From contig OZ024740.1 in assembly GCA_964016885.1 (NCBI GenBank), forward strand, positions 121,644,001 through 121,708,000: a DNA stretch of 64,000 bases, read 5' to 3'. Source of the DNA: Eledone cirrhosa (lineage: Eukaryota). Within the stretch, counting starts at the first letter, position 1. Every line of letters begins with the position of its first letter. Shown here piece after piece: positions 951 to 49,887 of the stretch. A program made the translations under genes and the position numbers. The notes under the pieces were generated by a model that saw only the letters and a list, made by a program, of their open reading frames with translations, searched no databases and had not been told where the DNA came from.

Positions 951-990
951 TTTGAGATCACAGGTCAGATTTTATTATTATTATTATTAT

Positions 991-2065
991 TGTTCTTTGA
1001 GTCTCAGTCATTGATGTTAGTTAACTGGAAAGTTTATTGCAATGAATATCAAGCCACTACCTGCAGCCTCAGATATTCAGGATGTATCGGAGGTTTCTTG
1101 CTGTTCCCAGCAAGCATGCCTTTTGAAGCGTTCCAAAAAGCGTGGCTCGGCTAATTTTCTTCAACCATCCCTGGAAACTTTTTGAGATAGTACCTAGTGC
1201 GCCTATGACAATCGGGACCACTTTGAGTTTATGGTAGTTCCAAATCCTTTTATACCTCCCACTTTAAGTCCTGGTATCGGTTAATTTTCTCCCTCTCCTT
1301 CTCTTGTACTCTCGTGTCGAATGGGCAGGCCACATCCTCAATCAGGCACGATCTTTTTTCTTAGTCCAAAACCACCAGGTCAGGTCTATTGTGTTCCAGT
1401 TTCTTGTCCGTCTGTATCCTAAAATCCCACAGCACCTTCACCTGGTCGTTTTCTATCAGCGACTCTGGCTTATACTCATACCGCTTCTCAGAATGTGGTA
1501 AATTGTTTACTTTGCATAGGTGCCAGTGGATCACCCTGCCCATCACATCATGTCTCCAGCCCTTATAGTTAGTCTGGGATTGGTGTTTACACTCGGATAC
1601 AATGTGAGCCACAGTCTCCTCTCTCTCTCCACAGATCCTGCACAGTGGGCTAGCCTCCTCCTTGTAAATATGGTGTTTCAACCACTTCGTTTTGAGGGCC
1701 TGCTCTTGTGCAGCCATTAACATTCCTTCTGTAGCCTTTTTAAGGTCTCCTCTTTTCAACCAGTTCCATGTCTGTGGATGTCTGAATTCCGTTTTCTCAA
1801 AGAAGGTACTATGAAGGGATTATTCCTGAAGGCTGCTCTTTCTCCTTGTTGTTATTTCCTCCTTGGACATCCCCTGGTCTATTGTCCTCTCCTTCAGTAC
1901 AGTTCTGAACATTGGCTCCTTACTATCAATCACGTATTTGTGTAGGTTGTTTTTCTCCATCTGAACACAGTCCTCTATGCTGATAAGACCTCTTCCACCC
2001 TCAGATCTCCTTAAGTAGAGTCTATCGACATCACTCCTCTTGTGGAACGTGTTGTAGATAGTCAA
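991..2065 (-). mobile_element. R4/Dong family B, 5'-truncated 3' fragment (CCHC + RLE endonuclease + 3' UTR) flanked by (ATT)n on both sides
   Basis: ORFs 1820-2065 and 1361-1759 (CRICGEREETVAHIVSEC, RHD, NRPDLVV). Colinear with 52790-53835. ATT tracts at ~975-990 and ~2066-2092. Confidence 0.9.
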
Positions 2066-2096
2066 TTATTATTATTATTATTATTATTATTATACA

Positions 2097-2303
2097 GGGC
2101 GGTGGATTGGAAGTATCGGTAGAGGGTCGGACGCCATGCTTTGCAGCAAAAAGTTATGCCCCTTTATGGTCTGAGTTCAAATCCCGCCGAGGTTAACTTT
2201 GCCTTTCATCCTTGCAGGGTCGATAAAATAAAGTACCAGTAATACACTGCGATAATTGCTGGCCGTGTGCCAAAAGTAGAAACAATTATTTTTATTATTA
2301 TTA

Positions 2304-2341
<38 letters not shown>
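2097..2341 (+). mobile_element. tRNA-derived SINE copy 1 with (ATT)n tail
   Basis: A-box-like TGGAAGTATCGG, B-box GAGTTCAAATCC, central GCCTTTCATCC..GGGTCGATAAAATAAAGTACCAG (resembles the Meta-type domain of mollusc SINEs, recalled not searched), ATT tail. Three copies in the window. Confidence 0.85.
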
Positions 2342-2368
2342 GCCGACCTACGTAGTAAATCGTATCAT

Positions 2369-2552
2369 AGCGGTGGATTGGCAGTATCGGTAGCGGGTCG
2401 GACGCCATGCTTTCCAGCATAGTTACGTCCCTTTACGATCTGAGTTCAAATCCTGCCGAGGTTGACTTTGCCTTTCATCCTTACGGGGTCGATAAAATAA
2501 AGTACCAGTAATACACTGGGTAATTGCTGGCCTTGTGCCTAAAGTAGAAACA

Positions 2553-2612
<60 letters not shown>
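2369..2612 (+). mobile_element. tRNA-derived SINE copy 2 with (ATT)n tail, flanked by 27-bp direct repeats
   Basis: Same A/B boxes and central domain as copy 1. GCCGACCTACGTAGTAAATCGTATCAT occurs at 2342-2368 and 2613-2639. Confidence 0.85.
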
Positions 2613-2828
2613 GCCGACCTACGTAGTAAATCGTATCATCGTGAGCGCCGCAAATGTTTGTTATTTTCAGTTGTTTAAAATTGCCATTTATGTAAATATT
2701 TTATTGTTAACTGTATATAAGTGCACATACTTTGATTTCTGAAAAGGACGCTCAAATATATTGGGGCCTTGAGCCCAAAATTTAAACTTTTTATAATTAT
2801 CAAGCAAAACATTTTTCTTTGAAAAATC

Positions 2829-4607
2829 ATGAATGACTCAGATTCACTCCTTCCTCACAATCTAACACCTCACACCGACACCACCATTGTAAATATTGCT
2901 ACGTTTGCCAACACTGGGAATGTAAGCAGTAGCAATATTTTAAATTTGTCTCAGGCAGACGTTCATTTCCCGCCATTACCAATGACTGCAGATGTTAAAG
3001 CCGCCACCACCACCGCCACCACGACAACCACCACCCCCACCACCACCACAGCGACAAAAGAAACAAAAGAAAAAATAAATTAATTCGTGATATCGAAATG
3101 AATTCAACCAAAATGAACTCTTCCACACCGAACACCACTGACGCCACCACCACCACAACTGAAACTAAAATTAACAATATCAAAAATAACGATAACAACA
3201 GCAGCAACAATGAAATTAAGAAAACTACCCTGAGTTTTGCCAGAGTAGCAAAAGCGTACGAAGCGATCCAGGTAACTCAGGAGGAATTAGAAGAAGCCAA
3301 AGGAATGGTAAAGAAAGATGGGTACAGTGTCAGCCTCCCCAATACCTAATAAAATGGAGCAACGTCGCCTATGCACCATGTCTTATCGGACAATTAACAT
3401 AAAATCGCGCCGAGTGTAACGGGCATCAGAGTCCCAAATCCAAAAAGCTTTGGGACATGTGTGGGCAAAAAACCCCAGATCAGACGTGGGCAGAAGTATG
3501 GAACCGTGGACGTGTTCTTTGAAACATCACTGGAGGCCAGAGAACACTCCATGGCCCCATTAAGAAGTGACGACTTCACACTCGTCCCAAGCTATTGTGG
3601 CCAGAGACTTGTGAAGATCAGGGTGACCCACGTTCCACCGGCCATCGAAATTCCCTGGCTAATGGCTGCCGTCCTCGCCGGCATCGAGGCCAACACCAAG
3701 ATAATTGAGATAGCGAAAGAAAAGCAGGAGAACTGGTCCGGATCTGGGATGGAGCTCCTGATCCAAGCGGACCATAAAAGCATTGAGGAGATCCCAGAAG
3801 TAATAGAAGTCACTGACGGCAGCCACCTCACCGTAATCGTCGAGAGCAGAAGACCTAGGTGTGTCGTTTGTGGTAAAGGAACCCACCTAAGGGCTTTCTG
3901 CCCTCAGGCTAAAAGCTTGAGGCCACCTCTCTTACCCACCCCAGTGACTCAACCATCAACACCACCAGCAGCAGAAAGGGCAGCAACAAATGTAGCAGCA
4001 ACAAAAGAAGCAACTGTAACAGCAACAACCCCAGCAACAGTAGCAAAACCAACACCACCACCACCCAACCCTCCAGAACTAGCACCAGCACCTACACCAT
4101 CCACCACGCCACAAACAAAACCAACGCCTATGGAGGATTTTCCACTTCTCGGCTTATCGCAACTGGAGACAGATTGTGACGACGAGGAGTGGGAAACGGT
4201 ATCAGTAAAAAAGAAAAAAAGAAACCAAAAAAGAAACAATTCTCTTCCTTCCCCCTCCAAAAACAAAATACAGAGGGAAACAAATAAATTATCAAAAGAA
4301 CCAAAACGATACACATTACACAGCATTAAATTTGAACAACGACCAATTATTACACTACATGCAACACAACACCAGCATCTCAGAAAAAGACTACACAACA
4401 ACCCAAAAGTTCACACAACCTCCACACATACAAATCACTCGCATCACACAGAAAACGTACATGACACTAAAACAAAAATTCCCCAAAGACATCGGAGACT
4501 TCCGACAAGCACTCTCCAGGAGGATTTATAAGGACATCCTTCCTGAGGAGGCCACAAGCAGTGAAAAGGATGGAAAAACCGTCCTTCCTCTACGAGAAGT
4601 AAGGTAA
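2829..4607 (+). pseudogene. Tx1 copy 1 ORF1 (Gag-like, CCHC knuckle), interrupted
   Basis: ORFs 2829-3083, 3098-3349, 3461-4531 (CVVCGKGTHLRAFC, Pro/Thr-rich region) and 4332-4607. Confidence 0.8.
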
Positions 4608-4641
4608 GTGGTCTTTCCCATCTTTTCCACTCCATTTCAAC

Positions 4642-7600
4642 ATGACCTCACTCAGAATAGGCAGCATAAATGCGCGTGGGTTGGGGTCGTCAAGGAAGCA
4701 GGGCCACCAGCTCAACGATCTCAGGTCACTAAACATAGATGTAGTCGCCATCAGCGAGACCAGATTCTCCGAAGCACGGGCCTTCGCACCGATCATCGGC
4801 GGCTACGATGTGTATGCATCTCCCAGCCGTCCGGGATCGGGGGCGGGGAGTTGCTGTGCTTTTTCGAAGAGGTTTGGATCTCGCCATACGGGCCATCTTC
4901 CAGGACCCAGAAGGTAAGTTGGTGGTGCTGGACGTGACCAGCGGAGACGTGCAAGCTTTCAGGTTAGTGGCCATCTATGCCCCGACAGGAGCAGGGCGGC
5001 CTGATTTCTTCCGGCGTCTGGAGACCTTTCTTGGAACGTCCCGCTCTTTAGTGTTAGTGGGCGACTGGAACGAGATCTTAGAGGCACGCTAGGATTGTGT
5101 GGGATTAGTGGATAGGGGAGGAGGGTGCATAAGTCTCACCAACCTCCTCAGGCGTTTTGAACTGTCTGACAGGTACCGATTGGATTTCCCGAATGTACCA
5201 ATGTGGACTTGGACAAATCGCATAGGGTCATCCAGATCATATCTAGATAGAGTATTTTGTAGGGAAATAGATAGGTCTAGCATAGGCTGTCCACAATTCA
5301 AGATAGTCAGCTACATGGACCACAAATTCGTGATGTGTGTGCTTGACTTAGATAGGCTTCATAGACGAGGACCCGGCTACTGGAAGCTAAACGCGTCCTT
5401 ACAAGCGCGCAAGGCCTACAGAGACCGGATTAGCGAACTAGTTAAGCGGGCGTTGACAAGGGCCATCATCAACAACAAGTGGTGGTTTGCTCTGAAAAGA
5501 GCAATTAGAATAAAGGCCATTAGGTTTAGTAAGGCTTTAGCAATAGAGAAAAATAGAGCAGAGGGAGAATTAGTTAGAAAATTAGACGAGGCGCTTAGCA
5601 AAGGCATCGCGACCGACATGCTTGCGGCAAAATTGGCATTTGACCAATCTTCAATGCAAAGCACGAAGTGTGTTGTCAGAGCTAGGGTGCATGCTCTCAG
5701 ACACGAGGGGACGAAAGCCGTTCAATGGGCCCGAGTGGCGGAGGCGCCTCGTGGCAACAAAGCCCCGATCTGGTTTTTGGTGGACCACGACGGGGTCGCA
5801 TGCTACTCGATCCCGGGAAAATGTGTGAAGCTTTTCAGCGACACTTCGCTCAACTGTTGGGGGGCAGCGGCGGGCCGGGTCGAGGGGTGGACTTTAGTGT
5901 CTACCTTGACGGACTGACGCGGCTCTCGGCCACTGAGGCGGAGTGTTGCGAAAAGCCGATAACAGCCCCTGAAGTACGGGAGGCAATGAATAGCTGCACA
6001 AGGGGTAATCGCCTGGTTTGGATCGTCTGCCCTATGAACTTTACTTACAGATGCCAGACTTGTTCGGAGACCTCTTGGCGGACGTCTACTGCAACTGGCA
6101 ACAGAACGGGAGAATTCCCAGCTCTGTGAGCCGAGGAGCTGTGGCACTGCTGAGAAAGGATCCGAACAAAGGGGATAACATAGATCATTTTAGGCCAATA
6201 ACTCTGCTAAGCAAATAGTTCAAGATTTTGACCAAGGTGCTAGCAAAGAGGTTGGCGCTTGTCGTTAGTGGTCTGGTGGGAGAGGCGCAGACATGCGCCA
6301 TTCCCGACAGATCCATCCACAACAACCTCCACCTCTTTCGATACATCGCAGAGAGGGTAGCTAGGGAACCTAGCACGGGTGGGTCCTTGATCAGTCGAAA
6401 GCATTCGATAGGGTCGACCATCGCTTCCTAGTGGCAGTCCTGAGGGCGGCTGGATTTGGGCCCGTCTTAAGAGGCTGGATCGCTGCCATGCACAGCGACA
6501 TCTGCTTTGTGGTGAGAGTGACCGGTCACTTTTCGGAACCGTTCAACATCATGCGTTCGGTCTGCCAGGGATGTCTCGTCTCGTCCCTCTTGTACGTATT
6601 AACTCTCGAGCAATTACTGCACAAACTGGAAACGTTGAGGGGGTTCTCGCGCGAACTAGGATGTGGAAGATCCGTGTCAGCATATGCGGACGATGTCACC
6701 GTAGTGGTGTCGAACGCCAAACACATCGAGGCGATCGGCACTACACTAAGAGAATACGACGCGGTGACAGGAGCAATGATCAACCAGGAAAAGTCAGTAG
6801 GCCTGCAGCTTGGCACCTGAAGAGGCAGGTCCATGCCGTCCAACAGCATCGTCGGGTGCTAGACGGACGGACCAGTTAAATTGCTCGGTGTCTGGTTCGG
6901 TCTGGATCTCCAGACGGACAAAAACTCGGACGAGTTGACGAGCAGGGTGGCTTCTCTCACCCAGAAAATGGCGGAGAGGATGCTATCCCTGAAAGATCAA
7001 GTGGAGGTGGCTAACGCGTATATCGCGTCCGTCATCTACTACAGCCTGACCGTCATACCTTGTCCTAAGCACCGCCTGACTGCGTTGGAGCGTTTGCTCT
7101 TTCGCTTTTTGTGGAAGGGACGCACTCCGATGGTCAGGCGGTCCATCTGCTGTCAACACCCGCTACGTGGAGGGCTGGGAATGACGTGGCTGATGATGCG
7201 TAGACACGCGCTCAGGCTACGATATCTCCACCTCTTCCACGACGGTGATCAGGTGTGGTCACCCTTTGCTTGATGCGTCTTTCCCCAGCTCGTCTCCTTG
7301 ACGGAGTACCAGTCCTGGGTCAAGCGAAGACCGAGAGGGAGCGCTTGGCGACTGGAATGTCTTCAGGCGCTCACAGCCCTCGACCAATCGGGCAATGTGA
7401 TCGGTGGAAACTCCACCTTGGCGTTCTATAGAGGATTAGTGGAGGGGAAGAGCGACCAACGTACTTGGAGAAAGTCTAGGCGTCGACGAAAATCAACTAG
7501 CCAATCTCTTCGGAAGGACTTCGGGCCGGGGCCTATGGACTACTTCCAGAAATCCCTGGCCTGGCAGTGCTACCGAGTAGCTTTGCCAGTTCGGTATAAA

Positions 7601-8050
7601 CTCTACAGTCATGGCGGTGCCGTCATCCGGGCATGTCCGAGATGCGCGCAGGGCGACGAAACCGTCCTGCACGCACTCGTCCAGTGTCCGAAAATTGCTG
7701 ACTTGTGGGTTTATGTCGAACACCTGCTGTCGCGTGTAGGAAGGATCCGGCTATCATCTGAGTCCATCGTAAGGATTGCCCCGCCCTCTTCCTTTAGCCG
7801 GGAAGGGCAGTTAGTGTTTATCTGTCTGGTGGCCATGGCGAAAGAGACAGTATGGTGGACACGTTTGAAAGGGCTGAAGACGAGCACTTAACTCTTCGGT
7901 GATGCCCTGATTAACTTTTTCAAATTTCATTTGAAAAGGAAAATCAGGGTAGAGAGGGAAGTGCTCACTTCCCATCATTCTGTTGAAAGATGGGTGAGAG
8001 AAACAAGAATGGCCCGAGTGAATGGGCCTACTCTGAGTACGTATCTGTAA
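4642..8050 (+). pseudogene. Tx1 copy 1 ORF2 (APE endonuclease-RT-CCHC), multiple frameshifts and stops
   Basis: SINARGL, ISETR, VGDWN, SYLDR, DH, GYWKLN, YADD (in 6431-6820), GGLG, CPRC..ETVLHALVQC. Confidence 0.9.
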
Positions 8051-8298
8051 ATTAAGGGTGGAAAACTGGGAGAGGGCACTTGCCTTGGTGGTCAGGGTCA
8101 CTGTGGCCTTTTACTGGGCTTTCTCCACAAATGTCCCTCCGAAATCTCCCCCCTATTGAGGAATTTTTCATTGTTATTTTTTGTTACATCCTCTGTTTTT
8201 GTTCTTTACACGCAGAAATGCCCATTTGTACCGTCCTGTATTGTCCTGCACTGTCCTTAATGTCTACTTTATATAAACCCTTGTGGTTAATAAAGAAA

Positions 8299-8334
<36 letters not shown>

Positions 8335-8335
<1 letters not shown>

Positions 8336-11300
8336 AGTTGCATTTATCTTGCTATATGTTCATACGAGTTATCACCAAGTCACAATCAGTGACCTAAAGA
8401 GACAACAAGGTCCGCCTTGTTCCATAAAGAACAGACATAAACACACATGCATCTTTAGGTGTTTAGACTTGTGATGTAGTTATATTGACAGAATCTTCCT
8501 TAGTATATGGGCAGTTCCCAGTAGTACTATATTTGGTATTTCTCCTATACGCGGGTTTCCTGGGATTTGCGATAAGTAATAACTAGACCCCTTAGGTATC
8601 ATTCCTAGAGCGCCTACAACCACTGGTATTGTTTTAGATCTCAATTTCCACATTTTTCCAATTTCTATCTCCAGGTCCTTATACTTGCTCAATTATTCAA
8701 ATGTTTTTATAGATACATTCTTGTCTATTGGAACGTACATATCAATTAGCAGGCATTCCCTATTTTTAAAGTCTTTCAGTATTATATCAGGTCTATTTGC
8801 ATCTATTTTTCCGTCTGTTTGGATGCAAAAGTTCCATAAGATTGAGATGTGATCTTTTTTCAAGTATGGGAGGTGGTTGATGCTCCCACCAATTCTTTTG
8901 ATGGGGCAGGTCAAAATGCTTACACATTATCCAATGTATGTATTGTGCAGCTCTGTCATGCCTGTTTAGGTATTTGCTTGGAGCTATAGGACTGCACATT
9001 GAAATTATATGATCAATGGTCCCGGGTTGTTTTTTTTACATACACGGCATAATGGGTGCATTCATTTTTTATTATGTTGGCTTGGTAATTTTATGTTGGG
9101 ACTGATTATATCTTGTGCTGATATAATCAGTCCTTCAGTCTCCGATTTCAGTCCAGAGGATGCCAACCACTGATGGGTTAAAGTATTTTCAACATCAGGA
9201 TTGTTAGTTTCTGTAGCAGTTCTTTCTTTGCAGTTATTTTTACCTGCTTTGCTTTTTCTTTTTTTTCATTTCAGCAGTAAATGGAACTTCTGAATTGTGT
9301 AGTCCATTACTGTATCTTTGTGCATCTTTTGATGGTTTTGTGTTTCAAAACGAGTTTGATTATACAATCATGTGATTCCCTTAGATATGTAGATATTCCA
9401 ATTGTTGCAGTTTTCAACGCAATATCTAACTGGATTAACCCACGTCCTCCTTCTTTCCTAGCGAGATATATTATATCTGTATCTGCCTTAGGGTGATGCA
9501 TTCTGTGCATGGTTAAGAATTTTCTAATTTTTGTATCGATCCTACGGATCTCTGTGCTTGACCATTTGATGACATTGTAACTGTAGGTTACTACTGGTAT
9601 GGCAAGCGTTTTTATGGCATCGATCCTATTCCTTGCGTTCAATTCCGTTCTTAAGATTGCTCTTACTTTGCGTTAACATTCCTTCCTTATCCTTTCCCTC
9701 ATTGTCGAGTGCTTGATTCCATCCCCTTCACAAAGACCTAGATATTTGTAAGTTTTTTCTTGATCAAGTTCTCTTATTACATTCCCTCGATCAAGATTAA
9801 TGTCTGGACTTTACAGCAGCTTACCTCTGGCGGACGTTGCTTTGGCACATTTATCTACTCCAAACTCCATTTTAATGTCATCACTGAACTGCTTCACAGT
9901 GGATAATAGCCCTTGCAATTGTTCATCATTTTTTGCAAATAGTTTCAGGTCATCCATGTAAAACAAGTGATTAATGATTTTGTCATAGACTTTATATCCA
10001 TGTTTTGTTTCATTGAGCATTTCAATTAATAGTATAAGTGCGATGCAGAATAAAAGCGGAGATATAGAATCACCCTGAAAAATTCCACAATTAATATTAA
10101 CTTCTCCAGCTTCCAGTGATTTTTCACTATTCAAAAGGAGTGCCGCTTTCCATCTCCGGAATGATCGGAACCTACTGTCAACGGGAGATATTTTGGTCAT
10201 ATGTATATTCAGTTAGGACTGATGTTAAAATTTTATACATTGTGGTCAAGCAAGTTATCGGTCTGTAAGTTTTGGGATTGTTTGTCTCATCATTCTTCGG
10301 AAGCAGGAATGTAATGCCGTTAACTAGCCAGGGTGGTATCTTTTCTGGCTCCTTAACTATTTCATTGTAAAGTTGGTCTAACAATTCATGAGACTGTGAA
10401 GGCATTTATCCAAAAATCTGGTATTTTGACTTTTCCTGGGGATTTCCATTTGCTGGTTTTTCTAAGAGCCAAACGTAACTGTTCAACTGTTATATTTTCC
10501 CATATTTGTTCCTCAAGGTGAGCTCTATCTTTCATTTGTCGGTCTATCCATGAGGCATGTATATTATGAACTTTTTCTTCGGCTCAGATCTTTTCCCAGA
10601 ATTATTGCCCTTCCCCCTTGGGTGGTATTTATTTAGCAGTTATTGTTGACTTGCCAATTTTTCTGTAGAAGTTTCTTTGGTTGTTTTTGAACATCTTATT
10701 GTCCTTATAGAATCTAGATCGTTTTTCAAAGCGCTTTGGCCGACACTTTTTGCTTGATTATTTCTATCAGCATGTCTATGTTACTTGTTGATTTTATACT
10801 GTATTTTCTTTTCAATTTTCTAAGTTTAGTTTGTTTAACATGTTCACCTACTTTGTAGTTTGTTAAAATTTCTATGTCAGATTGGAGAAGGTTTATTGGC
10901 GATTGATGTTCTGTTGCCAAGTAGATTTCTTGTGGGAATTCCTATGTTTTTTCATTTTCACTCCACATAAGTGAGTGGTGACTTTAGCCGATGCATAATA
11001 GAGATGATTTAAATCAGTAATGTTTAGTTTGTATGTGATAATAATGTTTTTGAGAATTATGTTTGTCTTGTGCATTATCTTTTGGTTCTGTTTGGACTTA
11101 TGGATCTTAGGGAGGGTGTCTCGTTCCCCCATGTCAGGTTCTTTCATTTTCATCTATTAGATCATAATTTCATCCTTCATGTTGGAAAGTTGATTCTCAT
11201 TCATTTCTTTATCATTTACGATCTCATTGTTTTCATTTTGAGTTTCATCTTGAGCATGCACTCCCTCCACTTTTTCGATCCTTTCTTTAATTTGTTTTGT

Positions 11301-12066: not shown

Positions 12067-12070
12067 ATTA

Positions 12071-12208
12071 TGGATTGCCAGTATCGGTAGAGGGTCGGAC
12101 GCCATGCTTTGACGCATAGAGCTACGATGCTTTCCATTCTGAGTTCAAATCCCGCCGAGGTTAACTTTGTCTTTCATCCTTACGGGGTCGATAAAATAAA
12201 GTACCAGT
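12071..12208 (+). mobile_element. tRNA-derived SINE copy 3, truncated at both ends
   Basis: TGGATTGCCAGTATCGG..GAGTTCAAATCCCGCCGAGG..GTCGATAAAATAAAGTACCAGT, as in copies 1-2. Confidence 0.8.
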
Positions 12209-12832: not shown

Positions 12833-13098
12833 TTCTTCTTCTTCTTCTTCTTCTTATTATTATTATTATTATTATTATTATTGAATGCCATGGTTGACGG
12901 AGGCTCGGCTCTGTAAGGTATAGTAATTTTTAACCGTTAAAACAATTGTAAATTGTTTAAAACTTGAACCAAATTGTTGATAAAGACACCCTCCTCCTCG
13001 TGAGAGGGGTCTTTCTGTCCGTTATTTGGCCCTTCGGGGTTAAATAACCAGTTATTGGAGTTTTGTACCCCAAATTTCATTTTAAACAAAAAAACAAC

Positions 13099-15194
13099 AT
13101 GGCTACGAAAAAGAAATTTCATACGTCACTCCCACTCATTCCGTCTTCTTCTTCCTCAATCATCACTACAGCAGAGAGAAGATTGTCTCTCTCCCTCCCT
13201 TCTTTAAATGTGTCTCTCTCCCTCCCTTCTCTTTCGCAAGTGACGAAAGAAAAGAAAAGTCTCGTGCAAAGTGTGCAAGGTTTCTCCACGACGACGACGA
13301 CAGCGACGAAACAGGTGTGCGGGAAATACGAAAACCCAGTTCATTCGTCTGACGTCAGGAATAATAGCAGTAGCAGCCGTAATAACAACAGCAACAGTGA
13401 CAATGAAAACAACAGTAGCAGCCGCAACAGCATCACCAGCAGCATAAACAACAATAGCATTAGCAGCAGCAACACCAACAACAACCACAGCAACAGCGGC
13501 GGAGGCAGTAGTCGTAGTACCTGCAGCAACAACAAAAGTACCAGCAGCTCTGACGACAACAACAACAGCAGAGAAAAACCAATCTCATTTGCAGATATTG
13601 CGAAAAACTTGGAAACAATCCTCATAACAAATGAGGAATTAGAGGAAGCGAAGAAGATGGTGACAAAGAACGGACACCGAGCAATCTGCAAGGCAGCGGA
13701 AAAATTTTTCGAAACCCAAGAGCACTGTACGGTCACGTACCGTACATTAAGTACAAAATCCCGTAGGGTGGAAAGAGCCACAGAGGCCCAAATACAAAAA
13801 GCCTTGGGGTCTGTGTGGCAGCGGAAAACGCACATCACCCGAGGCAAAAAATATGCCACCGTAGACGTACTTTTTGCCACACCCCAGGAGGCAAAGGCCC
13901 AATCAGTAGTGACCCTAAGGAGCGAGGAAATGGTGTTGGTGCCCTCCTACTGCGGGCAAAAAATTGTGAGGGTCAAACTGACCCACGTCCCCCCCGGAAT
14001 GACCCCTTCTTGGCTGGCCGCGTCTGTCCTCGTCGGAATCGAGGACAAAATAACTGTACTGCAAGTACAGAAAAAAGTAAGAGAAGATTGGGTCGGCTCC
14101 TCCATTGAGATGCTAATCCAAACCAACCAGGAGTGCATCGAAGCTATCCCGGATGTGATAGACTTCGATAACGGCACTCAACTGCCCATAAGTGTTGAGG
14201 GCAAACGCCCGAAATGCTTTCGCTGTGGATCGAAGACTCACCTCAGGGCCTTCTGCAACGAGAAGACCCTGAGAAAGGAGAAAACCCCCCTCCTTCCGAA
14301 TCCGGCTCCACGGCTACCAGCAACAGGACAAGCGGCAACCAGGAACGATAGGTCCGTGGCACCCATACCCACTCCACGGAAATCAAAAACAGCAGCAGCA
14401 GTGGAAATATTAACAACAACAACAGCAATACCAAATGCAGCTGCAACAGAGACTCCAGTGCAAACATCACCAACAACAACAAGTGAAAGAGTGGAGCTGG
14501 TACCCCTCCCCGACCTCACAGAATCAGACATGGAGTGTGAGGTGGGAGAGGGATGGCAAAAGGTCGTAAGAAGGCACAAACGCAGAAGCAGCGCATCGTC
14601 GCCTTTGAAAAGGGAGGAAAGAAATGAGAAAAGGGTAAAGTCTACTGCAAAGTGACCCACAGCAGCAACAACACCAACACCATCACCACCCACACTAGCA
14701 CCACCATCACCACCGGCGACAACCCCACCGCCAACAACACCTTTAACACCACCACCACATGCACCAACATCGCAAACACAACAACAAAACACACACACCC
14801 AGCAACAACGACAAGAAAATAGCAGAACCACACCCACCCCTAGAAAAACAAATGCACGGCAATAAATACACACAACAAGAAACTAATGACTTACATAATT
14901 GAACACACAGACATTTCACAACAGGACTACATAATACCAGCACCAATCAAAACGCCAACTAACATAAGACTGCTAAAAATAGCACAGAAACAATACACAA
15001 ACATTAAAACGAAATTCCCCAACGCAGTTGGTGATTTCAGGGACCTAGGAGGAACCATCAATCGAAGAGTATATTCAGACATTCTCTTAGAAGAGCCGAC
15101 GACCAGCCGAAGGAACGATTCAACGGTCCCTTCACCAGACGATCAAGTGAAAAGGGATGTAAAAACCATCCCTCCTCTACCAAAAGTACGGTAA
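13099..15194 (+). pseudogene. Tx1 copy 2 ORF1 (Ser/Asn-rich N-terminus, CCHC knuckle), frame break after 14655
   Basis: ORF 13063-14655 (likely ATG at 13099; CFRCGSKTHLRAFC). C-terminal piece 14886-15194 is homologous to 4332-4607. Confidence 0.8.
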
Positions 15195-15229
15195 GTGGTC
15201 TTTCCCATCTTTTCCACTCTATTTTAAAC

Positions 15230-18200
15230 ATGACCTCACTCAGAATAGGCAGCATACATGCGCGTGGCTTGGGGTCGTCATGGAAGCAGGGTCACCTGCT
15301 CAACGACCTCAGGTCACTAAACATAGATGTAGTGGCCATCAGCGAGACCAGAATCTCCGAAGCACGGGCCTTCGCACCGATCTTCGGCGGCTACGATGTG
15401 TACGCATCTCCCAGCCGTCCTGGATCGGGTGGAGGAGTTGCTGTGCTTTTTCGGAGAGTTTTGGATCTCGCCATACGGGCCATCTTCCTGGACCCAGAGG
15501 GTAAGCTGGTGGTGCTGGACGTGACCAGCGGAGACGGGCAAGCTTTCAGGCTAGTGGCCGTTTATGCCCCGACAGGAGCAGGGCGGCCTGATTTCTTCCG
15601 GCGTCTGGAGACCTTTCTTGGAACGTCCCCCTCTTTAGTGTTAGTGGGCGACTGGAACGGGATCTTAGATGCACGCTGGGACTATGTGGGATTAGCGGAT
15701 AGGGGTGGAGGGTGCAAGAGCCTCACCAACCTGCTCAGGCGTTTTGAACTGTCTGACAGGTACCGATTGGATTTCCCGAATGTGCCAATGTGGACTTGAA
15801 CAAACGGCATAGGGTCATCCAGATCATATCTAGATAGAGTATTTTGTAGGGAAATAGATAGGTCTAGCATAGGCTGTCCACAATTCAAGATAGTCAGCTA
15901 CACGGACCACAAATTCGTGACCTATGTGCTTGACTTAGATAGGCTTCATAGACGAGGACCCGGCTACTGGAAGCTAAACGCGTCCTTACCAGCGCGCAAG
16001 GCCTACAGAGACCGGATTAGCGAACTAGTTAAGTGGGCGTTGACGGGGGCCATCGTCAACAACAAGTGGTGGTTTGCTCTGAAAAGAGCGATTAGAATAG
16101 AATCGATTAGGTTTAGTAAGGCTTTAGCAATAGAGAAAAATAGAGCAGAGGGAGAACTAGTTAGAAAATTAGACGAGGCGCTTAACAAAGGCATTGCGAC
16201 CGACGTGCTTGCGGCGAAATTGGCCCTTGACCAATTCTTCAATGCAAAGCACGAAGTCTGCGTTGTCAGAGCTAGGGTGCGTGCTCTCAGACACGAGGGG
16301 ACGAAAGCCGTTCAATGGGCCCGAGTGGCGGAGGCGCGTCGTGGCAACAAAGCCACGATCCGGTCTTTGGTGGACCACGACGGGCGCATGCTACTCGATC
16401 CCGGGCAAATGTGTGAAGCTTTTCAGCGACACTTCGCTCAGCTGTTCGGGGGCAGCGGTGGGCCGGGTAGAGGGATGGACTTTAGTGTCTACCTCGACGG
16501 ACTGCCGCGGCTCTCGGCCACTGAGGCGAAGTGTTGCGAAAAGCCGATAACAGCCGCTGAAGTAAGGGAGGCAATGACTGGCTGCACAAGGGGTAAATCG
16601 CCTGGTTTGGATGGTCTGCCCTATGAACTTTACGTACAGATGCCAGACTTGTTCGGAGGCCTCTTGGCGGACGTCTACTGCAACTGGCAACAGAACGGGA
16701 GAATTCCCAGTTCTGTGAGCCGAGGAGCGGTGGCACTGCTGAGAAAGGATCCGAACAAGGGGGATAACATAGACAATTTCCGGCCCATAACTCTGCTAAA
16801 CACAGAGTCCAAGATTTTGGCCAAGGTGCTAGCAAAGAGGTTGGCGCTTGTCGTTGGTGGTCTGGTGGGAGAGGCGCAGACATGCGCCATTCGCGACAGA
16901 TCCATCCACGACAACCTCCACCTCATGCGATACATCATAGAGAGGGTAGCTAAGGAACCTGGCACGGGTGGGTCCTTGATCAATTTAGATCAGTCGAAAG
17001 CTTTCGATAGGGTCGACCATCGTTACCTAGCGGCCGTCCTGAGGGCGGCTGGCTTTGGGCCCGTCTTCAGAGGCTGGATCGCTGCCATGCACAGCGACAT
17101 GTGCTCTGTGGTGAGAGTGAACGGTCACCTGTCGGAACCGTTCAACATCATGCGCTCGGTCCGCCAAGGATGTCCCCTCTCGTCCCTCTTGTAAGTTTTG
17201 ACTCTCGAGCCATTACTGCACAAACTGGAGACGTTGAGGGGAGTCCCGCGCGAACTAGGATGCGGAAGATCCGTGTCAGCATATGCGGACGATGTCACCG
17301 TAGTGGTGTCGAACGCCAAACACATCGAGGCGATCGGCACTACACTAAGAGAATACGAAGTGGTGACAGGAGCAATGATCAACCAGGAAAAGTCAGTGGG
17401 CCTGCAGCTCGGCACCTGGAGAGGCAGGTCCATGCCGTCCAACAGCGTCGTCGGGCGCTGGACGGACGGACCGGTTAAATTGTTAGGGGTCTGGTTCGGT
17501 CCGGACCTCCAGACGGACAAAAACTGGGACGAGGTGACGAGCAGGGTGGCTTCTCTCACCCAGAAATGGGCGGAGAGGAAGCTATCCCTGAAAGGTCGAG
17601 CGGAGGTGGCTAACGCGTACATCGCGTCTGTCATCTGCTACCGCCTGACCGTCGTACCTTGTCCTAAGCCTCGCCTGACTGCGCTGGAGCGTTTGCTCTT
17701 TCGCCTTTTGTGGAAGGGACGTGCTCCGATGGTCAGGCGGTCCATCTGTTGTCAACACCCGCTACGTGGAGGGCTGGGCATGCCGTGGCTGATGATGCGC
17801 AGGCACGCGCTCAGGCTACGACATCTCCATCTCTTCCTCGACGGTGATCAGGTGTGGTCGCCGTTTGCTAGGCGCGTATTTCCCCAGCTCGTTTCCTTGG
17901 CGGAGCTGCAGTCCTGGGTCAAGCGAAGACCGAGAGGGAGCGCCTGGAGACTGGAATGTCTTCAGGCGCTCACAGCCCTCGACCAATCGGGCAATGTGAT
18001 CGGTGGAAACTCCACCTCGGCGTTCTATAGAGGATTAGTGGAGGGTAAGAGCGACGACGTACTTGGGGAAATTCTAGGCGTCGACGAAAATCAACTAGCC
18101 AATCTCTTCGGAAGAACTTTCGGGCCGGGTACTATGGACAACTTCCAGAAATCTCTGGCCTGGCAGTGCTACCGAGGAGCCTTGCCAGTTCGGGATAAAC

Positions 18201-18649
18201 TCTACAGGCATGGAGGTGCCGTCAGCCGGGCATGTCCGAGATGCGCGGAGGGCGACGAAACCGTCCTGCACGCACTCGTCCAGTGTCCGAAAATTGCTGA
18301 CTTGTGGGTTTATGTCGAACACCTGCTGTTGCGTTTAGGACGGATCCGGCTATCATCTGAGTCCATCGTGAGGATTGCCCCGCCCTCCTCCTTTAGCCGG
18401 GAAGGGCAGGCAGTTTTTATCTGTCTGGTGGCCATGGCGAAAGAGATAGTATGGTGGACACGTTTGAAAGGGCTGAAGACGAGCACTTACCTCTTCGGTG
18501 ATGCTCTGATTGACTTTTTCAAATTTCATTTGAAAAGGAAAATCAGAGTAGAGAAGGAAGTGCTCTCTTCCCAGCATTTTGTTGAAAGATGGGTGAGAGA
18601 AGCAAGAATGGCCCGAGTGAATGGGCCGACTCTGAGTATATATCTGTAA
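15230..18649 (+). pseudogene. Tx1 copy 2 ORF2 (APE-RT-CCHC), single frame with only two premature stops
   Basis: ORFs 15230-15799, 15917-17194 and 17198-18649 share one frame. Stops TGA 15797-15799 and TAA 17192-17194 correspond to TGG and TAC in copy 1. Motifs KSPGLDG, FRPITLLN, DQSKAFDRV, QGCPLS, YADD. Confidence 0.93.
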
Positions 18650-18910
18650 ACTAAAGGTGGAAAACTGGGAGAGGGCACTTGCCTTGGTGGTCAGGGTCAT
18701 TGTGGCTTTTTACTGGGCTTTCTCCACAAATGTCCCTCCGAAGTCTCCCCCCTATTGGGGAATTTTTTCATTGTTATTTTCATTGTTATTTTTGTTACAT
18801 CCTCTGTTTTTGTTTTTTTACACGCAGAAATGCCCATTTGTACCGTCCTGCATTGTCCTGCACTGTCCTTAATGTCTACTTTATGTAAACCCTTGTGGTT
18901 AATAAAGAAA

Positions 18911-18969
<59 letters not shown>

Positions 18970-18970
18970 G

Positions 18971-21900
18971 TTTGAGTCTCAGTCATTGATGTTATTTAAC
19001 TGGAAAGTTTGTTGAAATGAATATCAAGCCATTACCTGCAGCCTCAGATATTCAGGACGTATTGGAGGGTTCTTGCTGTTCCCAGCAAGCATGTATTTTG
19101 AAGCGTTCTAAAAAGCGTGAAGGGGCCAATTTTCTTTAACCATCCCTGGAAACATTTTGAGATAGTCCCTAGTGCGCCTATGACTTCATTGCAGGTCCAA
19201 ATCCTTTTTAAGTCCCACTTTAAGTCCTGGTATCGGTTAATTTTCTCCCTCTCCTTCTCTTGCACTCTCGTGTCGAATGGGCAGGCCACATCCACAATCA
19301 GGCACGATCTATTTTCCTTCTCCCAAACCACCAGATCAGGTCTATTGTGTTCCAGTTTCTTGTCCGTCTGTATCCTAAAATCCCACAGCACCTTCACCTG
19401 ATAGTTTTCTATCACCGACTCTGGCTTATGCTCATACCACTTCTTAGAATGTGGTAAATTGTTTACTTTGCATAGGTGCCAGTGGATCACCCTGCCCATC
19501 ACCACAATCTGCAGCCCTTATAGTGAGTCTGCGCTAGGTGTTTACACTCGGATACAATGTGAACCACAGTCTCCTTTCTCCACATATCCTGCACAGTGGG
19601 CTAGCCTCCTCCTTGTAAATATGGTGTTTCAACCACTTCGTTTTGAGCTCCTGCTCCTGCGCAGCCATTAACATTCCTTCTGTAGCCTTTTTAAGATCTC
19701 TTTTCAACCAGTTCCATGTCTGTGGGTCTCTAAATTCAGTTTTCTATAAGAAGGTACTATGAAGGCTGCTCTTTCTCCTTGATGTTATTTCCTCCTTGGA
19801 CATCCTCTGGTCTATTGTCCTCTCCTTCAGTACAGTTCTGAACATTGGCTCCTTACTATTAGTCACGTATTTGTGTAGGTTGTTTTTCTCCATCTGAACT
19901 CAGCCCTCTATGCTGATAAGACCCCATCCACCTTCAGATCTCCTTAAGTAGACTCTATCGACATCACTCCTCTTGTGGAACATGTTGTAGATAGTCAATA
20001 GCTTCCTAGTCTTCCTATCCATTTCTTTTTGTTCAGCAACATTCCATCTCAGAATTCCCGTACTGTACCTAATAATAGACACAGCTCGGGAATTTACTGC
20101 ACTTATGACATTCCTACTGTTCAGATGTGACTTTAATACGCTCCTTACTCTCCGAATGTATTCAGTTCTTAACACTTCCTTCATTCTTTTTGTTCTTGAT
20201 GTCATCAGCCTCCAGAACACCCACATACTTGTATCCTTCTTCAGAGTCAATTTCTTTTATCCTCTCACCTGTTGGTACCTGGATTCCGTTACTTCTGCTC
20301 AATTTACTCCTCTTCATCACAATGACTCCACACTTACTAATACCAAATTGCATACATATATCATTGCTGAAAATACGGACAGTGTCAACAAGCACATCCA
20401 AGTCCTTCTCACTCTTCCCGAAGAGCTTAAGATCGTCCATGAAGAGGAGGTGATTGATGGTAAGCCCTCCCTTTCCCAACCTGTATCCTGCTCTGACTTT
20501 TCGCAGTACACTGGTCAGGGGCATCAGGGCAAGGACAAACAACAGAGGGGACAGACTATCTCCCTGGAAGATACCTCTCTTGATCTTCACGCTGCCCAAG
20601 GATTCTCCAGTTGATGTTAAATCTGTTTCCCAGGACTTCATACTTTTGCCCATCAACTGTCAGATGTTATCTGCCACCTTGAAGATCTCCAGGCTTTTCG
20701 TGATCCAAGAATGAGGCACCATGTCAAATGCCTTTATGTAGTCTATCGATCCCATGGCAAGACCAGTGTGTCTCCTCTTGCAATTCCTCATTACCATCTT
20801 ATCAATAAGTAACTGGTCCTTTGTACCACGTGAATTCTTTCGGCATCCTTTCTGTTCGTCCCGTAACAAGTTGTTTGTGTGGAGGTGATGGTAGATTTCC
20901 TCAGACATAATGCTTGTCAACAGTTTCCACATTACAGACAGACGTGCGATAGGTCTATAGTTGGTAACACCATTACCCTTGATTTGGTCTTTCATTATCA
21001 GAACTGTGGTACCTTTTGTCAACCACTCTGGTATCTCACCTGACATCAAGCAGTCATTGAACATGGTTGTCAGTTTTGGGTGGTGGGATGTTATATTTTT
21101 AATCCAATACCCCTGCACACCATCTGGGCCTGGTGATTTCCAGTTGGTTAGTTATTTGGCCTGCCCCTTAAGAGTTTCAACTGTGATACTCAAATCAGTT
21201 TGTCGGTGTGCCTGTTCATTGATCTCCCTCAGTACTGTCTCAATCCACGCTGCCTGGTCATTATGTTTAACATCCTGCTCCCATATTCCTCTCCAGAATA
21301 TTTTAGTTTGTTCCGCCTCAGGGATCAAGTCGTTGCCTCTTTCTTTCCCTTCAAGCTGTCCAAACAGCATCTTCTGGTTGTTGTCGAACATGCGGTTCTC
21401 TCTATACTGACTGACTCTGTTCTCGTATCGCCTGATTGTTGCACTCTTTGCAACAATGCGTTGCTTCAGTTCCGCTATGATAATATTTAGCTTTTTCCTC
21501 CTAGTTTTGTACTTTATTTCCAGTCTATTTTTAGTGTCTATGTTTTTTAGTGTCCTATTCAGTAGGGACTCAAGCTTTCCAATGTCATTTCTCATTTCCC
21601 TGATTTGACCACTCAGTCGTCCCCTCCACCAACGCTCTGCTCTTTCTTGTCTGTTGTTTCCTCTAGCTTTTATACCAAATAGTTTCCTCACCGTATTTGC
21701 TGTTGCTTTGAGGATATTGTTGCACTGGTGAAGGCTCCTCGCCTCAAGGTATGATATGACTTTGTTTACCTTAGCTGTTGTTTCTTTTAACTTTTTCCTG
21801 TCTACAAATCTTAGGTTCATAGGTTTCCCACTACCATTGTTCAATTCATCTACCACTAAGTTTAGGATATCAACTAAATCTTGTCCTAGCCTGTCAGGAT

Positions 21901-23878
21901 TCATCTCTTCAGTGGCCGTATCTCTGGTCCAGGTACTATTTATCTCAGCATTCAGATCATTGTCTGCTTCGGGTGGTTCCTCCGTTCTCTCGACCTCTTC
22001 ACCTTCATTTCCCAATGGCTCGTTTGCCTGGCATACTCCACTCACCCTCTCCAAGCTAATCTCTCTGCTCAGTTCCTCCAATTCCAGCTCGCTTATCCAC
22101 CCATTAGTTCTTATTATCCGAGCCTGCCCGGCCAATTTATGTTCATCTAATTTAAATAGACCAATCTCGTTCCAGATGTTATGAATCCGTTTCCTATAAC
22201 CTTTCTCCTTGGGGTTACTCTTCAGGTAACATTGCATAACAGTTCTATTCAATTCTTTCGTCCAGTTGGTTGTGGTCCCTTTCCTTCTTCTTCTTCTTCC
22301 GACACCAGCAGTATTTGTTTGACATCCAGGTCCCTGCTGCTGAGCCAGGGAGCACTCGTTGGGAGAGAGTCTGTCACATGACATTCTATTCTCTATTTCA
22401 CCGTTATTCGAACTGTTTAGGTTCGACATTTAAACACTCTTATCGAGGATTGGCGAATGTATGGTTACATAACCACCGGTGATGTCATCACCTCCAGTGA
22501 TTTCGTCACTCCCGGGGATTTTTGTGTGGCATTATCACGCTGTAGACGAAATTATATAAACAAACAACCAAACAGGCCCCCCCCCCCCCCCAAGAATAAG
22601 CATAAGTTTCATTGTAATGTAATGTTCGAATGTCTTACTTAGTGTTTCCCTTCCCTTTTCTGTCCGTCTGTCTGTTTCTCTCTTCATTTTTCTTTTCTTT
22701 ACGTTTTTTGTTCTTGCTGTGCTGCTTTGATTTTGGTTTTTGGTTTTTTGATTTTGACCGGGTGATGAATTCAGTCTATTTATATATTTTGATGCCTTCT
22801 TCTTTCAGTGGGGACACTGGGACACTACGATGTAGCAGGGGCTAGCGGGAGAGAAAAGCGACGGTAGTGATAATGAGGCAGTGGTGTTGGTGGTGGTGAT
22901 GGTGCTGTGCTATCAGCACCTAGCAGGAGGTAGTGGGAGAGAATAACGGCGGTAACGATAATGAGGCAGTGGTGGTGGTGATGTGATCGTAGTATTGTAG
23001 TGATGGTTTTGAAGTTGGAGTAGAAATAGCCGTTGAGGCGACTTGACCAGTGTTTTTATCGTGGTAGTGGTGGTCGTGTTGGTGGTGAAATTATCTTTAG
23101 CTATTTAGCTATTTATTTCGACACTAACATTCCTGATCCAAAATTAAATATTATTCTTGTTTATTAATATTGTCTAGTGATACCGCCACCTTCCCCTTTC
23201 ATAAGTTAACAGAAGGTAATGGGGGAATAGTGGTGGTAGCAATGAAGGAGTGGTGGCGGCGGTGATGGGATAGTGGTAGTAATGATGGTTGGGTGGTGGC
23301 AGCGGTGACTGTAGTGATGGCGTTGTCGTTACTGAGTTTTGTTGAATAGACTGTATTTTTGTTTGATCGGTGGATCTATGGGGTTAGTCGCGTATATGTG
23401 TTGACATATTTCTTTAATATTGGAATTAAACATTTTGTGAAGACTTGAGACAATAATAATAGTAATTATAATTATTATGCTGGGATTGGTGCTGGTGGTG
23501 GTGAAATTGCCGTTATCTGGCTGTTGTATTTAGTGTACAGAGAGGAGTGATGGGGTAGGTGGTGTATCTAGTTTGTGGTGTTGGAGAAATTGCTGTTATT
23601 TGGCTGTTCTATATAGTGTAGAGAGAGTGGGTTTTCTTCCATTTATAACCATTTTAATATTTGAATGTATAATGTATATTAAAAAATTGAATATTTGAAC
23701 GATATAACAATATATTAAGGATCCGAATCTTCCTGAGGCTTGAGTCTGGTGCTTTATGCATCATTTGTACTAAGAATTGTTATTTCACAATTGATTTAAA
23801 TATGTTAAACATCAAAAATTTACGGGAGCGATTTCATGACCTTCTTTACATCACGTGCGTCTTCTTGCCATTACTTCC

Positions 23879-23879
<1 letters not shown>
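18971..23879 (-). mobile_element. R4/Dong family B, full-length (about 1.45-kb 5' UTR, single ORF 22429-19044 broken by frameshifts)
   Basis: ORFs 21152-22429, 20660-21118 (DYIKAFD), 20162-20656 (QGDSLSP, FMDDLK), 19900-20250, 19044-19505 (RPDL..DVACP..EKINRY). (ATT)n at both ends. Confidence 0.92.
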
Positions 23880-23921
<42 letters not shown>

Positions 23922-23923
<2 letters not shown>

Positions 23924-24539
23924 AGCTGCATTTATCTTGCTTTATGTTCATACGAGTTATCACCAAGTCACAACCAATGACCTCAAGAGACAACAAGGTC
24001 CGCCATGTTCAAGAAAGAACATACATACTCACACATGCATCTTTAGTGTTTAGACTTGTTATGTAGTTATATCGACAGAATCTTCCTTAGTATATGGGCA
24101 GTTCCCAGTAGTACTATCTTTGGTATTTCTCCTATACGCGGGTTTCCTGGGATTTGCGATAAGTAATCACTAGACCCCTTAGGTATCATTCCTAGAGCGC
24201 CTACAACCACTGGTATTGTTTTAGTTCTCAATTTCCACATTTTTCCAATTTCTATCTCCAGCTCCTTATACTTGCTCAATTTTTCAAATGTTTATATAGA
24301 TACATTCTTGTCTATTGGAACGTTCATATCAATTAGCAGGTATACCCTATTTTTAAAGACCTTCAATATTATATCAGGTCTATCTGCATCTATTTTTCGG
24401 TCTGTTTGGATGCTAAATTTCCACAAGATTGAGATGTGATCTTTTTCAAGTATGGGAGGTGGCTGATGCTCCCACCAATTCTTTTGATGGGGCAGGTCAA
24501 AATGCTTACACATTATCCAATGTATGTATTGTGCAGCTC

Positions 24540-24540
<1 letters not shown>
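23922..24540 (-). mobile_element. R4/Dong family A, 5'-truncated 3' fragment between (ATT)n tracts
   Basis: ORFs 24292-24513 and 24067-24279 are nearly identical to 8480-8950; same 3' UTR. Confidence 0.9.
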
Positions 24541-24575
<35 letters not shown>

Positions 24576-24664
24576 TTATTAAGGCTGTGCTTTGCTAATC
24601 GTAAGATTTGCCTCATGGTCTCATACGTCACGTACATAAGTATCTATTTCTAGATCTCTACTTT

Positions 24665-49804: not shown

Positions 49805-49887
<83 letters not shown>
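49805..49887 (+). repeat. (AAT)n microsatellite
   Basis: Directly visible; forms the 5' flank of a Dong-B copy. Confidence 0.97.

Follow-up and report, generated by a model that had tools for sequence, protein, structure and literature searches.

Among the long interspersed elements (LINEs) with microsatellite targets, two groups, R4/Dong and Tx1, bear most directly on the locus described here, a stretch of 64,000 nucleotides of Eledone cirrhosa DNA (assembly GCA_964016885.1, contig OZ024740.1, positions 121,644,001 to 121,708,000 of the forward strand; "the window" below means this whole stretch), in which members of both groups and tRNA-like short interspersed elements (SINEs) are packed around tracts of ATT/AAT repeats. 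Dong elements target TAA in hosts that include the snail Biomphalaria (PMC3812793), and a junction primer places the TAA repeats upstream in the Dong sense (PMC3774820); PMC3812793 calls Dong an apurinic/apyrimidinic endonuclease (APE) type, which is contradicted by the restriction-like endonuclease (RLE) that we find here. Tx1 families are known from (TC)n, (TTC)n and (TTCC/TTTC)n microsatellites (Kibi, Koshi and crocodilian elements; PMC4494074). Different LINEs may also share one target. TRAS1 and SART1, both of the R1 clade, are such a pair. In the telomeres of Bombyx they occupy one repeat in opposite directions (PMC7265360), and Keno, an APE-bearing Tx1 element, and Utopia, which carries an RLE, evolved the same U2 small nuclear RNA (snRNA) gene target in parallel (PMC4640811). 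The crocodilian SINEU elements, which have snRNA heads and poly(A) tails, have been linked through a shared target to mobilisation by Tx1 elements (Tx1-Mar), and SINEU-1 is reported to have no 3' similarity to any Repbase LINE (PMC4494074). Table 1 of Ohshima 2013 (PMC3747384) has 58 SINE/LINE pairs, with no Tx1 partner among them. Papers on octopus repeats name Dong-R4, L1-Tx1 and tRNA-Deu SINEs (PMC13282606, PMC8967140, PMC9115989), the tRNA-Deu SINEs as major ones (PMC8967140), and describe hotspots of transposable elements and recently active Dong-R4 and L1-Tx1 families in Octopus vulgaris (PMC13282606); the available text of these papers does not give the targets of the elements. The elements of the window, Dong-R4, L1-Tx1, Penelope and tRNA SINEs, agree with these reports and by themselves would suggest a cephalopod host.

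Compared with these systems, the Dong elements of the window resemble Bombyx Dong, DongAg and DongBg in their single open reading frame (ORF) with reverse transcriptase (RT), CCHC knuckle and RLE and in their TAA microsatellite target, and differ in that three families share the tracts and are mixed with Tx1 elements and SINEs. The window Tx1 elements, like Kibi, Koshi and the crocodilian elements (compared here by description only), carry an APE and insert into microsatellites, but their target is (ATT)n. Whereas TRAS1 and SART1 both use an APE on telomeric repeats, the window pairs one RLE with one APE on an internal microsatellite, and unlike the situation here Keno and Utopia share their 3' flank, and hence their direction, on a gene target that is not regenerated into long mixed arrays. 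The link between SINE and Tx1 in the window is a shared 3' stem-loop, as in the stringent pair ZmSINE2/LINE1-1_ZM of maize (PMC3747384), whereas that of SINEU is a target. Neither an (ATT)n-targeting Tx1 nor a Tx1-tailed SINE turned up in our literature searches, though Kojima and Fujiwara 2004, Ohshima and Okada 1994 and Repbase could contain some, and the supplements of PMC4494074 and PMC13282606 could also affect this; the available portions of PMC4758252, PMC3531059 and PMC3124438 hold nothing further that bears on the known precedents. Each half of our main result has a precedent, and the combination, the (ATT)n target of Tx1 and the SINE hairpin link appear to be new. We think it likely that the window contains arrays built by repeated target-primed reverse transcription (TPRT) into (ATT/AAT)n, and probable that the SINE was copied there by Tx1 proteins through the shared stem-loop.

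Two endonuclease classes on one microsatellite

The elements lie in two blocks. Block A (1-24581), of which 98% is retroelement sequence and whose left side is open at the window edge, holds six R4/Dong pieces on the minus strand and two Tx1 elements and three SINEs on the plus strand, with (ATT)n between them, in the order Dong C, Dong A, SINE, SINE, Tx1a, Dong B, SINE fragment, Dong A 5' untranslated region (UTR), Tx1b, Dong A and Dong B. Block B (49807-64000) is its mirror, with three Dong pieces on the plus strand and one Tx1 element on the minus strand, ordered Dong A, Dong A 5' part, Tx1a and a Dong A-like UTR fused with Dong B. An earlier reading, made from the sequence alone, had assigned these orientations to all 15 pieces and had described two tail-to-tail junctions and one head-to-head junction in block A; our analysis agrees on both counts and places the former on (ATT)11 at 8301-8333 and (ATT)19 at 18913-18969, the latter on (TTC)7 + (ATT)9 at 12833-12882. 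The two endonuclease classes that it claimed are borne out by homology, as the Tx1 ORF2 endonuclease matches L1 endonuclease structures (E 5e-4) and the Dong C-terminus matches the R2 RLE (E 0.002). The Dong pieces, however, which it lists under one name, belong to three families (A, B and C), and the Tx1 elements of block A have 5' halves that are unrelated at the DNA level.

In the Dong elements the RT is followed by the CCHC knuckle and a C-terminal RLE of the PD-(D/E)xK type, and the elements lie on (TAA)n, the sense strand reading TAA at 8 of 9 5' ends and at all 5 intact 3' ends, a target and strand that agree with the literature (PMC3812793, PMC3774820). Their assignment is by domain order and target, the best 120 homologues bearing no clade name. 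Bombyx Dong has a ribozyme like that of hepatitis delta virus (PMC3774820); at the Dong 5' ends of the window no Rfam match to one was found, and our own descriptor, used without a positive control on decayed copies, matched none of 8 5' regions. An old R4-like remnant with CCHC and RLE motifs (48330-49302, minus strand) lies off AAT, its 5' end adjoining (ATGT)50 at 49303 and its 3' flank being a decayed ATGT-like run, and may represent a fourth RLE family with another microsatellite target. This remnant and a truncated fourth SINE (~27387-27429) add to what the sequence-only reading had listed.

The Tx1 elements have two ORFs, ORF1 with one CCHC knuckle and ORF2 with Exo_endo_phos, RVT_1 and zf-RVT domains; in Tx1b, ORF1 (13099-14655) is open and ORF2 (15230-18649) is a single frame with two stops. 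Their AATAAA lies 6 nt before the tract. Insertion is sequence-specific, with (ATT)n at both ends in 3/3 copies and at one 5' junction outside the window. Tx1a and Tx1b share ORF2 and 3' UTR at 94%, while their 5' UTR and ORF1 (2613-4560 vs 12883-15146) have no DNA match and an ORF1 core that is 47-62% identical in amino acids, a difference that reads as a swapped 5' half.

All 15 pieces obey one polarity rule, with Dong opposite to Tx1 and SINE relative to the tract strand, so that in the element's own sense (AAT)n flanks Dong on both sides and (ATT)n flanks Tx1 and SINE. Twelve of the 15 5' ends adjoin a tract of the predicted strand (one via seven AAG units), and these twelve use 9 distinct tracts, for which p is ~2^-9 = 0.002 under random orientation, or 2^-12 if the ends are counted separately. 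All 10 intact 3' ends inside the window adjoin a tract as well, the remaining five being deleted or beyond the window. Runs of at least four ATT/AAT units number 16 in the window and cover 0.77% of its bases; 14 are at element ends and 2 within Dong A 5' UTRs, and none lies within 24.6-49.8 kb. The four 5'-truncated Dong copies have different truncation points, yet every truncation falls on a tract, and no poly(A) was found at any window junction. Since so many 5' ends abut tracts of the predicted strand, the tracts must be targets of insertion and not tails alone. That they are mere 3' tails, on elements that accumulate in a tolerant region and have no preference for repeats, is a most improbable alternative; simple-repeat ends are common in LINEs and SINEs (PMC3747384) and other repeats abound between the blocks, but the tracts at head-to-head junctions (2065, 12856, 62199) and at the borders (24542, 49807) are supplied by no adjacent 3' end, and neither the tract-bound 5' ends, four of them truncations, nor their orientation would be expected by chance.

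The blocks could also be segmental duplications, tandem or inverted, of one ancestral compound unit, in which case the pieces would not be independent. Reversed, block B resembles part of the order of block A (Dong B, Dong A 5' UTR, Tx1, Dong A), and a sister Tx1 lineage, described below, forms near-identical tandem arrays (97-99.9%). Against this, copies are truncated at different points, the Tx1 elements in corresponding places carry different 5' types, copies are as alike between blocks as within them (overlapping ranges, 85-94%), and the flanks that were compared share just a simple-repeat match, with no shared unique flank or truncation breakpoint found. Each element copy carries private differences, which at such identities marks it as a separate insertion, and we regard a duplicated block as quite improbable.

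If the arrays grew by TPRT, the orientations imply that R4/Dong would prime on the ATT strand, leaving (AAT)n on both sides in its own sense, and that the Tx1-group LINE would prime on the AAT strand, leaving (ATT)n on both sides. Every insertion would then leave repeats on either side, as a duplication and a tail, and thereby new targets. Duplications within pure repeats are invisible, and they can be detected here because two SINEs inserted at the edge of a tract. The same sequence, the initial 27 bp of Tx1a together with repeats, stands on either side of SINE2, whose insertion must therefore be later than that of Tx1a; the fourth SINE (82% over 38 nt, E 8e-5) has an imperfect duplication of ~26 bp (27361-27386 / 27433-27458, 23/27 columns). 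Both duplications start in an ATT repeat and run downstream, which is what TPRT should produce if the AAT strand is nicked first. They support the part of the sequence-only reading in which insertions renew their own target; its further proposal, that a single tract gave rise to each array, found no such backing, as no empty site was seen. Three pieces have deletion or fusion breaks (12208/12209, ~56314, 62860), at which later deletions would have fused neighbouring elements. A Dong A-like 5' UTR stands upstream of Dong B coding sequence in both blocks (12066-12209; 62860-62867), with different breakpoints, by deletion or template switch, and ~70 bp at 56314-56381, between the broken Dong A and an AAT tract, has no convincing match within the window. 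Antisense read-through across the tail-to-tail junctions is possible.

Other loci were sampled through public sequencing runs, of which 4 of 21 were mapped to the region 53300-63200; rows at repeats were dropped, so that element termini are invisible, and the best-matching run contains 0.40 of the window words, so that its organism may be a relative and not the same species. In run X19, 134 reads with 1 start join two 5'-truncated elements, a Tx1 cut off at 58856 and a Dong A cut off near 53687, head to head across an AAT tract and with the polarity seen in the window. The single start means that these reads represent one locus; the junction adjoins a restriction site and has no ligation scar. 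Recruitment to the Dong A and Tx1 families is high (57,513 contigs in run X1; 672,480 reads in run X19), and reads cover the 5' UTR of Dong A far less deeply than its 3' end, the profile to be expected of high-copy and often truncated LINEs, although depth is not copy number. From the 7,862 molecules of run X19 that end at 53948 (Dong A 5' UTR) and the 138,620 that begin at 53711 (Dong A 3' end), mates not being paired in the table, we infer many Dong-tract-Dong junctions. AT-rich loose ends at 53543-53544 lie at an AATT site and agree poorly, and we take them for library chimeras. A strand-switch joint within the Dong A 3' region (53421-53641) was seen in ~3,700 reads of run X19 with 5 starts.

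The 3' hairpin of the SINEs and their probable LINE partner

The SINE is ~190 bp long, with A and B boxes recognised by eye against a consensus, a simple-repeat tail and target-site duplications; ARAGORN reported no tRNA in the window, and no Rfam family was found there. Its body may be of the Nin-DC / Deu kind. A possible further SINE head at 24581 did not reach significance (p 0.09). The element terminates in an 11-nt hairpin, with a 4-bp stem and a 5-nt loop, which also closes the 3' end of the Tx1 lineage: the window Tx1 elements have the same loop on a different stem, and the hairpin of SINE2 and the fourth SINE is identical to that of several junction types of the sister lineage. Aligned without gaps from the tail, SINEs and window Tx1 elements agree at 12-15 of their final 25 positions (9 pairs; end-anchored shuffle p 0.0005-0.017), as compared with only 6 and 5 between SINE2 and the ends of Dong A and Dong B, respectively. 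Pairing in the 4-bp stem amounts to 93% over 15 aligned rows, double changes occur in 3 of its 4 pairs, and 0/500 shuffles reach its percent paired or its covariation score (slid controls, 32-62%); the outcome was similar, with 90% pairing, in a 12-row set that includes two more short units of the sister host, one of them with a third stem. The window SINE and Tx1 thus have the feature of a stringent SINE/LINE pair, a shared 3' sequence with a conserved stem-loop, although a short one (11-25 nt).

The hairpin would act as the recognition signal for the RT, and a SINE that carries the Tx1 3' stem-loop and is copied by Tx1 proteins would inherit the target and direction of Tx1, which would explain why SINE polarity follows that of Tx1. 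Judged from these sequences, the Tx1 lineage is probably the SINE's mobilising partner. Another APE-type LINE with an (ATT)n tail (RTE, CR1 or L2) might have moved the SINE instead, leaving the hairpin match as a relic or a chance likeness. Known SINE tails do come mostly from L2, CR1 or RTE (Table 1 of PMC3747384), and the stretch shared with Tx1 is just 11-25 nt, in a comparison limited to the window and the sister LINEs; but the hairpins have the same position relative to the tail, the same loop, compensatory stem changes and the same polarity, and both additional short units of the sister host close with that loop, in one case on a third stem sequence. We consider such a different partner rather unlikely.

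Several points weigh against the account of targeted arrays with a Tx1-mobilised SINE. The strictness of the polarity, which the sequence-only reading had claimed without exception and which holds for all 15 orientations, rests on one window and one outside junction, and 3/15 5' ends (SINE2, SINE3 and Dong B1) are off the tract; that of SINE2 lies 27 bp inside the Tx1a start, displaced by its own target-site duplication, and those of SINE3 and Dong B1 share a 5-nt tract remnant only. The tree leaves the placement of the window Tx1 lineage among Tx1-like groups unsettled. As to the hairpin, free local alignment of the SINE and Tx1 tails is not significant (p 0.12-0.14), pair-counting and pair-type-counting measures do not go beyond shuffles (53 and 229/500; 162 and 315/500), and the sister rows of both covariation sets were picked by motif and are related to one another. 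The hairpin is also short and of ordinary stability (z -0.7 to +0.4), and the centroid or minimum-energy fold differs from it in both SINE copies that were folded. Finally, the SINE stem fits the sister lineage better than the window's own Tx1, which suggests that the working partner may be another Tx1 subfamily.

A sister lineage and the source of insertion direction

A profile scan of genome contigs for relatives of the window Tx1 yielded 51 loci, 44 of them from small contigs of one bacterial bin with LINE arrays and AT microsatellites; we read these contigs (L081-L123, L130, L132-L141) as DNA of an animal host that contaminates the bin. The sister elements have ~43% identity to the query, and near their 3' ends, in 10/10 junction types, stands the 11-nt hairpin, followed by a second hairpin and AATAAA. 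The copies stand head to tail with a period of 6.4-6.8 kb in the loci checked and are near-identical (97-99.9%), subfamilies differing mainly in their 5' UTRs. Of 62 sites of the 3' motif, some counted twice as loci overlap, 58 lead into an ORF1 and one into an internal part of a different copy, the remaining three being too near the locus end. Ten stretches downstream of the motif comprise six that run into another copy, one that holds short units and three array ends, which stop ~11-18 nt past AATAAA on unique DNA and lack both poly(A) and repeats. At least three ATT/AAT units occur in only 1/44 sister loci, in unique flank. The sister lineage thus has the hairpin but lacks an ATT target, which therefore cannot characterise the lineage as a whole, and unlike Kibi and Koshi the sister elements have no microsatellite target. 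The sister arrays are satellite-like and have some intact ORFs, and as many as 13 motif sites were counted on a single contig of 91 kb. At L134:1000-2400 lie two different short tandem units without coding sequence (286 bp; ~400 bp). Both terminate with the 5-nt-loop hairpin of the lineage, another hairpin and an A-rich motif, and they are candidate non-autonomous partners of the sister lineage.

The window Tx1 and sister elements form their own clade (100/100) in a tree whose mixed Tx1-like set comprised U2-flanked and 5S-flanked elements and a protein named TX1 149 kDa, and was without Tx1L, Kibi, Koshi and vertebrate L1. The U2- and 5S-flanked anchors we take to be Keno and Mutsu. Membership in either subgroup was rejected, there being no RNA gene in the window and the lineage falling outside both anchor clades. 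Scans of viral contigs gave no relative, and genome contigs searched with the exact Tx1 3'-end pattern yielded 0 matches. Metagenome relatives (80 retained of 438 confirmed loci) are distant, and none has an (ATT)n run of at least 15 bases. Some Tx1-like relatives have U2-like sequence in their 5' part (L010:554-716, L017:701-817, L020:782-896); U2-like sequence in Tx1 heads is known from crocodilians (PMC4494074).

The sister junctions bear on what sets the direction of insertion. Polarity may be set mainly by RNA, in that a transcript reads into the tract and the (AUU)2-4 at the end of a Tx1 RNA anneals only to a nicked AAT strand, as the (AAU)n of a Dong RNA would only to a nicked ATT strand, while the endonucleases may nick either; this would be a variant of the targeting model and not a denial of it. 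A Tx1 RNA cut at the sister's distance past AATAAA (~11-18 nt) would carry 2-4 AUU units, the window Tx1 AATAAA being so close to the tract; poly(A) is lacking at the junctions, and annealing of RNA to target has been proposed for SART1 and R1Bm (PMC7265360). According to the same source, specificity passes from one to the other when SART1 and TRAS1 exchange endonuclease domains, and the endonuclease is the main determinant; we hold direction set by RNA to be possible, if on the doubtful side. More tentatively still, and as a whole rather unlikely to hold in every part, this could be an undescribed Tx1 lineage that recognises RNA through a conserved 5-nt-loop hairpin, mobilises a high-copy tRNA SINE by way of it and whose target is set by what its transcript reads into past AAUAAA. 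That target would be (ATT)n here, back to back with the RLE-bearing Dong, and the element's own neighbour in the sister host, giving head-to-tail arrays.

Anatomy of the window and significance

Table 1. Features of the two blocks and of the fourth SINE, in window positions
Feature	Position	Strand	Remarks
R4/Dong family C	1..971	-	5'-truncated within RT, leaves window; 5' end on (AAT)6; 43-55% amino acid identity to Dong A
(ATT)6 tract	972..991		
Dong A, 5'-truncated	992..2064	-	Zinc knuckle, RLE, 3' UTR; tract at each end
(ATT)9 tract	2065..2091		Head-to-head junction Dong A / SINE1
SINE1	2092..2284	+	tRNA-like head, A and B boxes by eye; 3' hairpin 2261-2271; (ATT)n tail
(ATT)19 and initial 27 bp of Tx1a	2285..2368	+	Left copy of SINE2 target-site duplication; 27/27 identical to 2613-2639
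SINE2	2369..2552	+	At tract/Tx1a boundary; hairpin 2529-2539
(ATT)20 tract	2553..2612		
Tx1-type LINE, 5' type a (Tx1a)	2613..8300	+	Full length, decayed; ORF1 CCHC knuckle, ORF2 APE-RT-zinc finger, 3' hairpin
(ATT)11 tract	8301..8333		Tail-to-tail junction Tx1 / Dong B
R4/Dong family B (Dong B1)	8334..12065	-	Near full length, decayed; 5' end off tract
SINE3	12071..12208	+	Tail deleted, no tract, fused to Dong A 5' UTR
Dong A 5' UTR, remainder deleted	12209..12832	-	88% to 23260-23921
(TTC)7 + (ATT)9 tract	12833..12882		Head-to-head junction Dong A / Tx1b
Tx1-type LINE, 5' type b (Tx1b)	12883..18912	+	Full length; 3' hairpin 18888-18900
(ATT)19 tract	18913..18969		Tail-to-tail junction Tx1b / Dong A
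Dong A	18970..23879	-	Full length, decayed
(ATT)14 tract	23880..23921		Head-to-tail junction Dong A / Dong B
Dong B, 5'-truncated	23922..24541	-	Tract at each end
(ATT)13 tract, one interruption	24542..24580		Right border of block A
Fourth SINE, 5'-truncated to tail	~27387-27429 within 27361..27458	+	3-unit ATT site outside the arrays
(AAT)27 tract	49807..49887		Left border of block B
Dong A, truncation inside 5' UTR	49888..53834	+	ORF with RT, CCHC and RLE motif
(AAT)10-like tract	53835-53864		Precedes Dong A 5' part
Dong A 5' part	53865..56381	+	443-bp internal duplication; broken ~56314, then ~70 bp of other sequence
Tx1-type LINE, 5' type a	56408..62198	-	Full length, decayed; tracts 56382-56407 and 62199-62219
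Diverged Dong A-like 5' UTR (62220-62860) fused to Dong B coding (62867 to window end)	62220..64000	+	

The features of both blocks are collected in Table 1. Between the blocks lie other repeats, among them a Penelope-like piece (26058-28073) with a weak GIY-YIG match (E 0.006, below the cut-off) and 130-bp inverted ends, beside (TA)35, and a large inverted pair (40707-48043) whose arms, 40707-42923 / 45882-48043 and 43284-44040 / 45126-45883, are 90-94% alike and which by eye contains Penelope-like RT sequence, head to head. At 33794-35678 a nested tandem (151 + 466 bp units, 98-100%) and an inverted repeat lie between (TA)n runs.

Clear precedents for the whole phenomenon limit the surprise of the locus, which offers a natural side-by-side comparison of an APE and an RLE on opposite strands of one three-base target. 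Such a pair makes it testable whether the nick or the pairing of the RNA with its primer fixes the direction of site-specific LINEs, and the arrays, in renewing their own target, offer a mechanism for dense hotspots of transposable elements. To judge by the shared stem-loop, the LINE that serves the tRNA SINE would be one of the Tx1 group. If the lineage does take its target from what its transcript reads into, RNA read-through, and not the endonuclease, would switch both target and direction, and in an octopus host the same reading would name the LINE partner behind a SINE expansion.

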